Source of the DNA: Escherichia coli
GTDB lineage: Bacteria; Pseudomonadota; Gammaproteobacteria; Enterobacterales; Enterobacteriaceae
Assembly (NCBI RefSeq): GCF_003334305.1
Contig: NZ_QOWS01000054.1
Reading direction: 5' to 3' (one strand)
Length of the DNA stretch: 2,565 nucleotides
Shown: piece after piece, positions 1 through 2,565 of the stretch
How positions within the stretch are numbered: the first letter of the stretch is position 1
How the letters are laid out: every line of letters starts with the position of its first letter
Translations under genes and position numbers: made by a program
Notes under the pieces: model-generated
Database searches by the model: none
What the model was told of the DNA's origin: nothing
The model's input: the letters and a program-made list of their open reading frames with translations, nothing else

Positions 1-657
1 GAGGAGAACCCGCATCACCTGCACCAGCCGTACCGGCTGCCGGGGCAGCAGTATGATAAGGAGTCGGGGCTGTACTATAACCGTCACCGGTACTACGATC
101 CGTTGCAGGGGCGGTATATCACCCCGGACCCGATTGGGTTGAGAGGTGGATGGAATATGTATCAGTATCCGTTGAATCCCATACAAGTGATAGACCCAAT
201 GGGGTTAGATGCGATTGAGAATATGACATCAGGTGGACTAATTTATGCCGTATCTGGTGTACCTGGATTGATTGCTGCAAACAGCATTACTAACAGTGCT
301 TACCAGTTCGGTTATGATATGGATGCTATTGTTGGCGGAGCTCATAATGGGGCCGCCGATGCAATGAGACATTGTTACTTGATGTGTCGAATGACTAAGA
401 CATTTGGATCAACAATAGCTGACGTGATAGGTAAAAATCATGAGGCGGCAGGGGATAGACAAGGTCAGCCAGCTAAAGAAAGAATCATGGATCTTAAAAA
501 TAACACTGTCGGTATTGCTTGTGGCGATTTTTCTGCCAAATGTAGCGATGCATGTATTGAAAAATATAACACTGGGCAACTCTTCGGGTTAGATGGTATA
601 AAAGCAGATAATCCAATAAAAGCAAAGCAAGGGAGTTCAGATGCTTCAAATTATTAG
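1..657 (+). CDS. rhsE: Rhs-family polymorphic toxin, 3' portion (5' end lies upstream of the window): terminus of the conserved RHS core followed by a variable C-terminal toxin domain
   Basis: Frame 1 is open from nt 1 with no stop until TAG at 655-657, so the gene starts upstream; the ORF-track start at 103 is only an internal TTG. Translation from nt 1 reads [69 protein letters not shown], the hallmark end of the RHS repeat-associated core (YD repeat, then the DPxGL demarcation). The first 200 nt are GC-rich (about 60% by eye) and composition drops immediately after DPMGL, as expected at an Rhs core/CT junction. The symbol is a tentative recollection of K-12 synteny (rhsE-ydcD-yncI-ydcC), not verified. 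Confidence 0.85.
193..207 (+). other. DPxGL motif (DPMGL) marking the boundary between the conserved Rhs core and the variable C-terminal toxin domain
   Basis: Codons 65-69 of the frame-1 translation encode D-P-M-G-L, preceded by the conserved PxxxxDPxGL context ([13 protein letters not shown]). In Rhs/YD-repeat proteins this motif delimits the core from the polymorphic CT and is associated with autoproteolytic release of the CT (established knowledge of the family). An upstream DPIGL at codons 43-47 belongs to the conserved core. Confidence 0.7.
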
Positions 658-1123
658 AGGCAAACTTGTCATTTTTTTAATTACCCTTTGTTTATTTGTT
701 GTTTACCTTGGGTTTGATAACAATTCAAATTCTGACATCGTATTTTATGGACATAAAACACCAAAGAGCGTTGAGATATATCTTTCTGAAAAAAATATTA
801 TTTATAAAATAATTAATGACCAAAAAATTAGTAGAGGGAATGGTCATTTTATAAGTATAATGGTTAATAATTACAGGACGCACTGTGGAGTGGTTGATAT
901 AAATCTTAATTTTTTCAATGATATTCTTTATAGCGTGCGATTAAAAAACATTAGTAAACTGGAGAATATGGAGTTCTGCGCTAAAAAACAACGGGTGTAT
1001 TTTAGTGATAAAAACAAGAAGGCTAGTTATAAAATAATTAATTATGGAGACTATTACGATGTTGATTATTATGATAACAATTTGAAAAATGAAGTTTTTG
1101 ACTGGATTGGTAAATGGTCATAA
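641..1123 (+). CDS. ydcD: Putative Rhs-toxin immunity protein (160 aa, AT-rich, N-terminal hydrophobic segment; uncharacterised)
   Basis: ATG at 641 is preceded by a good RBS (GGGAG at 631-635, 5-nt spacer). The ORF overlaps the toxin stop by 17 nt, the typical arrangement for a toxin/immunity pair. A 160-codon ORF in DNA this AT-rich (well under 30% GC by eye) is unlikely by chance. Residues about 8-25 ([18 protein letters not shown]) form a hydrophobic stretch after a positively charged start. The symbol is a tentative recollection of K-12 synteny; immunity function is inferred from position only. Confidence 0.7.
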
Positions 1124-1202
1124 TGAACAACACCAGAAAGAGAAAAATATAAAATACATACAGAAAGACATGAGAGCAAGGGACGGGGCAGGGCAAGATC
1201 AT

Positions 1203-1230
1203 GAAAATTGTGATGTAAATCACGATTTTC
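1203..1230. promoter_or_regulatory. Near-perfect 12-bp inverted repeat with 4-nt loop (GAAAATTGTGAT-GTAA-ATCACGATTTTC); contains a CRP-like TGTGA-N6-TCAC core; could also act as a weak intergenic hairpin or terminator
   Basis: Seen directly: 1203-1214 pairs with 1219-1230 with a single G·U position. The core TGTGA (1209-1213), 6 nt, TCACG (1220-1224) matches the CRP consensus TGTGA-N6-TCACA at 9 of 10 positions. It lies in the 180-bp gap between the immunity gene and the H-rpt transposase start. The stem is AT-rich, so terminator function would be weak. Either function is speculative. Confidence 0.25.
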
Positions 1231-1259
1231 ATCTTGGCTTTAACGCCTACAGGTGATCA

Positions 1260-2480
1260 AAATTTAACCTTTGGAATAACTAAAAAGATAAAAAAGGACC
1301 CAGGTGAGTATTCAAAGTTTGCTTGATTATATTTCAGTGATCCCTGATATACGACAACAAGGAAAGGTTAAACATAAATTATCTGCTATTTTGTTTCTCA
1401 CCGTATGTGCAGTAATTGCAGGTGCCGATGAGTGGCAGGAAATTGAAGATTTTGGACATGAAAGACTTGAATGGCTAAAGAAATATGGTGATTTTGATAA
1501 TGGCATTCCGGTCGATGACACCATTGCACGCGTTGTGAGTAACATTGACAGTTTGGCCTTTGAAAAGATGTTTATTGAATGGATGCAGGAGTGCCATGAA
1601 ATCACTGATGGTGAAATTATAGCAATAGATGGAAAGACCATAAGAGGCTCCTTTGATAAGGGAAAAAGAAAAGGAGCAATCCATATGGTGAGTGCATTCT
1701 CGAACGAAAATGGTGTTGTACTGGGGCAGGTGAAAACGGAAGCCAAAAGTAATGAGATTACAGCCATTCCAGAGTTGCTTAACCTACTGTATTTAAAGAA
1801 AAATTTGATAACCATTGATGCTATGGGCTGTCAGAAAGATATCGCTTCGAAGATCAAAGATAAAAAAGCAGATTATCTTCTGGCAGTAAAAGGCAATCAG
1901 GGGAAATTACATCATGCATTCGAGGAAAAATTTCCTGTAAATGTGTTTTCTAATTATAAAGGCGATTCGTTTAGTACGCAGGAGATAAGTCATGGAAGAA
2001 AAGAAACACGTTTGCATATTGTCAGTAACGTAACGCCTGAACTTTTGTGATTTTGAATTCGAATGGAAGGGATTAAAAAAGCTTTGTGTAGCATTGTCAT
2101 TCAGGCAGAAGAAAGAAGATAAATCAGCAGAAGGTGTAAGCATCCGATATTATATTTCATCAAAGGATATGGATGCTAAAGAATTTGCACATGCTATCAG
2201 AGCGCACTGGCTGATCGAGCACAGTCTTCATTGGGTGTTAGATGTAAAAATGAATGAAGATGCCAGCCGGATAAGAAGAGGAAACGCAGCCTAAATAATA
2301 TCTGGAATAAAGAAGATGGCACTGAATTTATTAAGAGATTGCAAAGACATTAAGGGTGAAGAGGAAAAGAAAGAAGGCTGCGTTAAACACAGGGAAAGAT
2401 CATCAGAAGTTCACTTTTTGTACTAAATAATTCGCATTTTATGTTTAAAAATTGAGATATTCCTCATTACCTGAAGCTGT
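1260..2480 (+). mobile_element. Remnant H-rpt (ISAs1-family) insertion sequence; boundaries approximate
   Basis: The transposase pseudogene fills most of this span, consistent with the roughly 1.2-1.3 kb size of H-rpt elements. I could not identify convincing terminal inverted repeats by eye, so the ends are estimated from the ORF position and from the upstream homology shared with the second copy (ATAAA(A/T)AAGG before each start codon). Confidence 0.4.
1304..2426 (+). pseudogene. yncI: ISAs1-family (H-repeat / H-rpt) transposase gene, inactivated by a +1 frameshift and an in-frame stop
   Basis: Track ORF 1304-2050 (GTG start, RBS AAGGA at 1294-1298) is collinear with H-rpt transposases (…ISVIPDIRQ…GIPVDDTIARVV…AIDGKTIRGSFDK…AIHMVSAFS…KSNEITAIPELL…IDAMGCQKDIA…ADYLLAVKGNQ…). 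It stops at TGA 2048-2050 just after a TTTT run at 2043-2046. Deleting one T restores [24 protein letters not shown]…, which continues into track ORF 2094-2294 (…[29 protein letters not shown]). That ORF ends at TAA 2292-2294, where homologs have a sense codon (GNAAE…). The same frame continues IISGIKKMALNLLRDC… to TAA 2424-2426, giving about 374 codons, the expected ISAs1 transposase length. The symbol is tentative. Confidence 0.8.
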
Positions 2481-2532
2481 TTTTTATTGCTTATACATGA
2501 TCAAATACTCCTTACATAAATAAGGTGAACAA

Positions 2533-2565
2533 ATGGAACTTAAAAAATTGATGGAACATATTTCT
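2533..2565 (+). CDS. ydcC: 5' end of a second ISAs1-family (H-rpt) transposase gene, continuing beyond the window
   Basis: ATG at 2533 follows an RBS-like AAGGTG (2522-2527). The 11 codons in the window, MELKKLMEHIS, match the characteristic N-terminus of E. coli H-repeat-associated proteins and align with the pseudogene N-terminus (MSIQSLLDYIS). Only 33 nt are visible, so the call rests on the N-terminal match and context. The symbol is tentative. Confidence 0.55.
   Translation, partial: MELKKLMEHIS

Follow-up and report, generated by a model that had tools for sequence, protein, structure and literature searches.

We propose that an insertion sequence (IS) in Escherichia coli carries a symmetric operator as its own control, namely a 32-bp palindrome upstream of an H-rpt transposase gene that is recognized by a dimeric DNA-binding protein, most probably cAMP-CRP, a reading in which we place roughly even confidence. 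Its position within the IS, its score against a CRP position weight matrix (PWM), a published dissociation constant (Kd), its conservation in an IS subfamily, and the direction of substitutions among E. coli alleles all suggest a CRP operator. Binding of CRP to this site in vitro was already known; what is new here is that the site belongs to an IS, that it is conserved in the subfamily, and that the palindrome is under additional constraint.

The window, by which we mean the whole stretch of 2,565 nucleotides analyzed, is an E. coli locus of the RhsE type and matches approximately 2,450 complete E. coli genomes at 98-100%. RefSeq annotates, in order, the RHS core and tip, ydcD, yncO on the minus strand, the ISAs1-family H-rpt pseudogene yncI, and the start of ydcC, which belongs to a second H-rpt (Table 1). 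The stop codon of ydcD is 66 nt from the IS terminus. The yncI transposase gene is frameshifted, contains an internal stop flagged by RefSeq, and lacks its 3' end. Compared with the intact O157 protein, its reading frame shifts near 2040-2050 and meets a stop codon at 2292-2294, which fits the RefSeq flag. Homology to the O157 element ends at approximately 2391, and the first H-rpt lacks about 98 nt at its right end, where the left terminus of the second ISAs1 element truncates it; in O157 the second element is absent and the first is intact at 1305 bp. The module formed by the rhs tip, ydcD, and ISEc26 adjoins pptA in K-12 and yafV in both the window-type strain and O157, and the whole block has been moved or exchanged between two Rhs loci. 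The ydcD/yncI region has been listed as an H-NS-bound "promoter island" (PMC3661553).

At 1203-1230 the window reads GAAAATTGTGAT-GTAA-ATCACGATTTTC, as an earlier note on this DNA had it. The inverted repeat described there, of 12 bp with one wobble pair, is real, and T1209/G1224 is the sole non-Watson-Crick pair in the stem, but its length was understated: the arms occupy 1201-1214 and 1219-1232, are 14 nt each and 13/14 (93%) complementary, and enclose the 4-nt loop GTAA. The distance to the transposase GTG at 1304 measures 72-103 nt, in agreement with the 75-100 nt or so given earlier. On the plus strand the 32-mer (1201-1232) folds at -15.3 kcal/mol (z = -6.4), equaled by none of 200 shuffles, and on the minus strand at -10.0 kcal/mol, with no shuffle as good. 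For 1190-1245, which comprises the palindrome and its flanks, the folding energy is -22.6 kcal/mol (z = -7.0); the same note had proposed computing it for 1195-1245. The palindrome is well beyond chance expectation, with a stem that contains three G-C pairs among 14 and is otherwise A/U-rich. An extended helix (1194-1198/1232-1236) seen in the fold of 1190-1245 was dropped as not conserved, O157 having C at 1235. The segment 1214-1231 (TGTAAA-TCACGA-TTTTCA) matches the TyrR box, whose consensus is TGTAAA-N6-TTTACA, at 11/12 positions, a likeness that is probably a by-product of the A/T-rich palindrome.

Table 1. Features of the window and left ends of related elements, with the basis for each assignment
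Feature	Position in window	Strand	Basis
ydcD, downstream of the Rhs C-terminal tip (the "immunity" gene of the earlier note)	641..1123	+	ORF and RefSeq annotation
yncO, small ORF; annotated GTG start 1223, in-frame ATG 1232	1038..1232	-	ORF and annotation
Left terminal inverted repeat (IRL), 19 bp, CAGGGCAAGATCATGAAAA	1189..1207	+	Homology start and match to right inverted repeat (IRR)
GATC (Dam) site in IRL	1196..1199		Invariant in 9/9 aligned ISEc26-subfamily left ends
32-bp palindrome, loop GTAA, nt 13-44 of the IS, over the inner 7 nt of IRL	1201..1232		Fold and 9-sequence alignment; perfect in O157 and R32_14_1F copies
CRP box AATTGTGATGTAAATCACGATT; half-sites TGTGA 1209-1213 and TCACG 1220-1224; center 1216/1217	1206..1227		PWM, published Kd, conservation
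Leader, palindrome to transposase start; Shine-Dalgarno AAGGA at 1294-1298	1233..1303	+	Sequence and alignment
ISAs1-family (ISEc26-like, H-rpt, yncI) transposase pseudogene, GTG start	1304..2389	+	ORFs, RefSeq
Second, different ISAs1 element (ydcC, ISEc5-like); left end CAGGGAAAGATCATC... at 2390, ATG 2533	2390..2565	+	Sequence, annotation
Salmonella enterica (L209) left end, CAGGGCAAGATCACAAAAACCGTGATGTAAATCACGATTTTCGT			
Metagenome (L215/216) left end, CAGGGCAAGATCATGAAAGTTGTGATATCAATCACAACTTTTGT			
Metagenome (L217-219) left end, CAGGGAAAGATCACGAAAGTTGTGATTTATATCACAACTTTCGT			

The palindrome is, as judged from its sequence, a CRP-type site, for which binding in vitro has been published and a role in vivo can be proposed. 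Its core, TGTGA-N6-TCACG, matches the CRP half-sites at 9/10 positions, the count given in the earlier note. We scored the site with a CRP PWM trained on 39 high-affinity sites, this one excluded, from Table 1 of a Footprint-seq preprint (PMC12871828). Against the window's own composition, the 20-mer at 1207-1226 scored 19.3 bits, compared to 2.8 for the next best site in the window, and none of 500 window shuffles reached 19.3 bits; the site is hence not background-like, and the suggestion of a CRP-type site holds. Against a uniform background it scored 21.3 bits, above all 39 training sites (9.9-20.9 bits). The same preprint (Wang, Stringer & Wade, bioRxiv January 2026), which applied Footprint-seq as a single method to K-12 genomic DNA, lists the K-12 sequence atTGTGAtgtaaaTCACGatt, centered at NC_000913.3:1530492 and assigned to yncI, as a new in-vitro CRP site with a Kd of ~0.6 nM, the second tightest among the new CRP sites listed; "novel" sites were defined there as those >500 bp from any described site (PMC12871828). 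The published sequence is identical to the palindrome site of the window, and the dyad, when mapped via the yncO coordinates, falls at 1530497.5, 5.5 bp off the published footprint center, with the palindrome corresponding to NC_000913.3:1530482-1530513. It was also found that the outer base of each CRP half-site matters least, and that CRP binds 1,217 regions in vitro, many without a known role (PMC12871828).

This CRP-type site belongs to the end of an IS. An ISEc26-type ISAs1 element has its left terminus at window position 1189, and homology among three insertion contexts starts exactly there, at CAGGG: the copies linked to ydcD, a copy in SCU-301 that sits inside another ISAs1 transposase gene of an Rhs region (L206 2359-2624), and a copy in R32_14_1F that follows an unrelated ORF. 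Independent insertions with three different flanks therefore define the boundary. An intact copy of 1305 bp, annotated "ISEc26 family" and encoding a transposase of 390 aa, is present in O157:H7 EDL933 (NZ_CP008957.1:276083-277387); it begins CAGGGCAAGATCATGAA, and the reverse complement of its right end, CAGGGCAAGAGCATGAA, matches IRL at 16/17 positions. The element has the features of the ISAs1 family, namely CAGGG terminal repeats, a transposase with the domains PF13808 and PF01609, and a length in the 1.2-1.5 kb range, and dozens of ISAs1 transposase genes in other bacteria are preceded, at a distance of 60-170 nt, by the terminus CAGGG(C/A)AAGATCA(T/C)G. Given a terminus at 1189, the palindrome corresponds to nt 13-44 of the IS and overlaps the inner IRL. 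It therefore does not lie in intergenic host DNA (the earlier note had placed it in the intergenic region between the immunity gene and H-rpt), and the idea that it is a regulatory site from the locus as it was before insertion is excluded, since it is inside the IS, 12 nt from the terminus, and the insertion contexts share their start at CAGGG. Nothing comparable to the palindrome is found next to IRR. The right inverted repeat carries GAGC where IRL has GATC, and by analogy with IS10 and IS50 the GATC could mean control by Dam hemimethylation. The right arm of the palindrome (ATCACGA, within 1218-1229) resembles the inner inverted repeat (ATCATGA, within 1197-1207) at 6/7 positions, as it does in the Salmonella and metagenome relatives. 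A tblastn search of plasmids returned no new insertion context, only the same locus or distant family members, and a search of the literature on H-rpt and ISAs1 ends yielded nothing useful.

Conservation of the CRP box extends across the ISEc26 subfamily. A scan of GTDB genomes (species representatives) gave no relatives between 62% and 94% identity, and the intermediates came from a protein search only, which recovered transposases 81% identical in Salmonella enterica and in two metagenome lineages (left ends in Table 1). In all four ISEc26-subfamily lineages examined, the CRP box is at nt 19-38 of the IS; it scores 15.4-17.7 bits in the three relatives and is the only strong site in each of the four whole elements. 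The half-site cores GTGAT/ATCAC are invariant at 10/10 columns across these four diverged lineages, the only ones available, compared to 36/72 of the other leader columns and 1/4 of the central columns; at a background invariance of 50%, the chance of 10/10 invariant core columns is ~0.001. Within the half-site, only the outer base (C or T) varies. This profile, with the core kept and the outer base varying, is the specificity profile of CRP. The earlier suggestion of a control element for the H-rpt transposase is plausible and is favored by the presence of the box at the same position in all four lineages.

The palindrome as a whole, and not only the CRP box, shows signs of constraint. In an alignment of nine sequences, 96.8% of cells are paired, and 3/14 pairs change on both sides (1202/1231, T-A to C-G; 1207/1226, A-T to G-C; 1209/1224, C-G to T-A), with G-U intermediates seen; slid controls gave none, and 7-8 of 500 shuffles matched the observed covariation. 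The inner five stem pairs are invariant, with no covariation, while the loop varies freely. In one metagenome lineage (L217) the palindrome is perfect over 14 bp and departs from that of O157 at three pairs. Since pairs 1202/1231 and 1207/1226, which change on both sides, lie outside the CRP box or on its margin, something also favors a long palindrome.

Within E. coli, variation at one pair of the stem bears on the choice between CRP and a hairpin. R32_14_1F and ~310 genomes from the O157:H7/O55:H7 group carry the perfect palindrome (CGTGA...TCACG), and UTME-7, with a decayed copy linked to ydcD, also has C at 1209. C1209T occurs in the window, K-12, and most other genomes, and SCU-301 has G1224A (TCACA). 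From this distribution, C at 1209 is probably ancestral within E. coli. Each substitution creates a consensus half-site, raising the score from 19.7 to 21.3 bits, and weakens the stem. Two independent substitutions at pair 1209/1224 thus seem to point toward CRP over hairpin stability, two events being no proof.

We infer from the site and its setting that cAMP-CRP would occupy the palindrome in vivo; the direction of regulation and the target promoter are likewise proposed here as parts of a model. At high cAMP, a CRP dimer would cover 1197-1236, based on the protection of approximately -19 to +20 that is general for CRP sites, and would bend the DNA and cover the inner half of IRL. Bound CRP would in this way set the amount of transposase and/or the accessibility of the left end. 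One possible route is a weak promoter in the 70-nt leader, the center of the site being ~70 nt upstream of a conserved AATAA(T/C); alternatively, bound CRP may block transcription crossing the IS boundary in either direction. More tentatively, and as a reading that is less likely than not, we suggest that the ISEc26 subfamily ties a carbon-starvation signal of the host to transposition, with cAMP-CRP at nt 13-44 switching transposase expression and/or use of the left end, and with the site serving as both CRP operator and hairpin. In the window and in K-12 the transposase gene no longer functions, which leaves the site as a relic, still able to bind CRP and overlapping the start of yncO.

The search for a promoter that could be served by the site gave weak candidates only. 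A sigma-70 consensus scan from the palindrome to the GTG at 1304 found no promoter that passes, and with a crude matrix of consensus frequencies the candidates place the CRP center at -53.5, -58.5, and -82.5 on the plus strand and at -72.5 on the minus strand. The conserved AATAA(T/C) hexamer (alignment columns 86-91) is -10-like; the corresponding start would lie ~70 nt from the dyad, a spacing that would be near that of class I sites. The sigma-70 list of Latif 2018 gives yncI a start at 1529663 (NC_000913.2), which was set aside as irrelevant, being ~1 kb off by coordinate offset.

Several observations weigh against a CRP operator. No good sigma-70 promoter was found at a canonical CRP distance. 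In-vivo CRP occupancy is not on record, a full-text literature search (ydcD with CRP; yncI) having returned no report of it or of crp-dependent expression at the locus, and H-NS, which binds the region, may exclude CRP in vivo. The symmetry exceeds the 22 bp of a CRP site, and the changes on both sides at 1202/1231 and 1207/1226 are not explained by CRP alone. Finally, the left ends of 44 distant ISAs1 elements lack a CRP-like site, and several have unrelated palindromes at the same place.

That last comparison also defines how far the palindrome extends within the ISAs1 family. No CRP-like site was found in the leaders of 44 other, more distant ISAs1 left ends (taken from genomes of species representatives and from a metagenome scan), whose highest CRP score was 8.4 bits, and we dismiss CRP control of the family as a whole; the neighboring ydcC (ISEc5-like) left end, with a best score of 4.9 bits, has no CRP-like site. 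The metagenome scan for the IRL pattern was mostly noise, an ISAs1 transposase being encoded in only 12/121 segments. A family-wide conserved hairpin is unsupported in general, since the fold z-scores of 35 ISAs1 left ends scatter around 0, with only Vibrio, Legionellales, and L030 standing out. Other clades with a CAGGGCAAGAT.. terminus bear unrelated sub-terminal palindromes, none of them CRP-like, in Vibrio (L017, L019, L183), Legionellales (L034, L035, L042, L047), and Shewanella (L025/L081). For example, the Vibrio palindrome CCCTTAT-N3-ATAAGGG has one compensated pair (T-A to C-G), the Legionellales hairpin has 19-bp arms, and a further unrelated palindrome of this kind reads TTTTTTGTACAAAAAA. 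A structural role of sub-terminal palindromes in ISAs1, perhaps an ancestral one, is possible.

One alternative, which we consider unlikely, is that the palindrome acts as a nucleic-acid hairpin and the CRP match is incidental. It could insulate the boundary or, with its A-tract, stem, and U-tract, work as a weak bidirectional intrinsic terminator, in either role halting transcripts that read into the IS from rhs-ydcD and/or out of it, or its RNA could mask the yncO start. The strong predicted fold on both strands and the compensatory changes with their G-U intermediates argue for this reading, as do the hairpins at the same position in other ISAs1 clades (z = -4.3 in Vibrio L019 and down to -6.5 in Legionellales L042), some of which are followed by T-runs. 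There are precedents in the left-end terminator hairpin of IS200 and in the fold-back inhibition of IS10. A simple terminator scan flagged the plus strand of the palindrome (14 pairs, three of them G-C, tail CTTGGCTTTA) as the only such site in 1000-1450, but the UUUU is inside the A/U-rich stem. Moreover, the invariance of the inner five pairs beside a variable loop fits a protein site better, and the derived E. coli alleles weaken the stem. Covariance models from Rfam 15 gave no match on either strand of the whole window at E-values up to 1. For ydcD, yncI, yncO, and ydcC, the E. coli 3'-end map of Adams et al. 2021 has no entry in the supplements consulted, a weak negative given how poorly the region is expressed.

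The expression of yncO bears on the same question. The start of yncO is in the right arm of the palindrome, and the ORF crosses the IS terminus at 1189 and then runs antisense to the 3' end of ydcD; because it spans the terminus, it is a chimera of IS and flanking DNA. The symmetry of the palindrome means that both strands begin by encoding MKIV. YncO protein has been detected with a chromosomal SPA tag (PMC6001520 Table 1), and convergent transcription of ydcD and yncO is reported in the literature, so that minus-strand transcripts cross the hairpin and YncO is translated through it. The earlier proposal of a weak terminator after the toxin-immunity operon is thus unsupported: the hairpin travels with the IS and not with ydcD, it has three G-C pairs, yncO is expressed although it starts within the palindrome, and the transcript 3' ends that were to reveal such a terminator do not appear in the supplements just cited, with the weight already given to them.

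A quite unlikely alternative is that the arms are additional inverted copies of a transposase sub-site, bound by the N-terminal DDE_Tnp_1_assoc domain for autoregulation or synapsis, with the likeness to CRP sites again incidental. In all four lineages the right arm, ATCAC(G/A)A, matches the inner inverted repeat, ATCA(T/C)(G/A)A, at 6/7 positions, and the palindrome overlaps the inverted repeat; the lineage-specific palindromes beside the inverted repeats of other ISAs1 clades would fit co-evolving sites. However, the likeness to the inverted repeat is short, a comparable palindrome is lacking beside IRR, and binding has been measured for CRP, whereas transposase binding is putative.

We find it improbable that the palindrome has no present function, being a chance or relic sequence within a dead IS and binding CRP in vitro only fortuitously. 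Both the window and K-12 carry the transposase gene as a pseudogene, H-NS binds the region, and many of the in-vitro CRP sites (1,217 regions) lack a known role, all of which favor this view. The occurrence of the palindrome at the same position, with an invariant core and a compensated stem, in four lineages that include intact elements argues against this, as does the low probability (~0.001) of such invariance by chance. Least credible is a binding site for FlhD4C2, the flagellar master regulator, which was suggested by a gSELEX-chip peak between ydcD and ydcC and an FlhDC box chosen by MEME, AAGATCATGAAAATTGTGATG TAAATCACGATTTTCATCTTT (PMC9962212 Table 1), in the K-12 equivalent of 1189-1240, since the peak (intensity 11) is barely above the cut-off of 10 and is without a gel shift, the 42-mer matches only ~16/28 specified positions of AAYGSSNNAAATAGCG-N10-12-CGCTATTTNNSSCRTT by direct count, and any A/T-rich palindrome would attract a motif finder.

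Returning to the operator for cAMP-CRP, its origin in an IS has consequences for how CRP sites are interpreted. A CRP site that ranks among the tightest measured on the chromosome of E. coli K-12 is a conserved component of a mobile element and not an element of a host promoter. The IS origin explains why a "new" CRP site is found beside a pseudogene, and where YncO starts. If the site is non-functional in vivo, it is a caution for in-vitro regulon maps, being a strong site imported by a dead transposon.

Compared to the cAMP-CRP sites of E. coli (consensus AAATGTGATCTAGATCACATTT), the palindrome shares 22-bp two-fold symmetry, TGTGA-N6-TCACG, T at position 9 and A at position 14, and A/T flanks, and it tops the 39 reference high-affinity sites in PWM score and has published sub-nanomolar binding in vitro. 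It differs from them in being located in the terminal 45 bp of an IS and in forming part of a longer 32-bp palindrome, and from class I, II, and III promoters in that no partner promoter was found at a canonical distance. The element resembles the H-rpt/ISAs1 elements of Rhs loci (ISEc1, ISEc5, ISEc26; ybfD/ydcC/yhhI type) in its DDE transposase (PF13808 and PF01609), CAGGG termini, length of ~1.3 kb, and association with Rhs C-terminal tips. The CRP-like palindrome, in contrast, is confined to the ISEc26 subfamily and is absent from the neighboring ISEc5-type copy and 43 others.

Other insertion sequences offer parallels for the arrangement at the left end. A stem-loop terminator at the left end of IS200, and fold-back structures in IS10 and IS50, protect these elements against outside transcription. 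Like them, the element described here has a stable hairpin just inside its left end, upstream of the transposase gene and flanked by A- and U-tracts. Unlike in those elements, the stem is A/T-rich with three G-C pairs, its inner part is invariant and does not covary, the ribosome-binding site of the transposase is outside the hairpin, 62 nt downstream, and the hairpin is a predicted one. Sites for host factors occur in several IS ends, including IHF in IS10 and IS1, a DnaA box and Fis in IS50, and Dam GATC sites in IS10, IS50, and IS903, and such sites couple transposition to host physiology. The left end of the ISEc26 subfamily is similar in having a site for a global host protein beside or over the terminal repeat, together with a GATC in the inverted repeat (1196-1199). 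The difference is that the factor here would be CRP, for which we know of no description as an end-bound factor in any IS; if functional in vivo, the site would tie an insertion sequence directly to a global nutrient signal.
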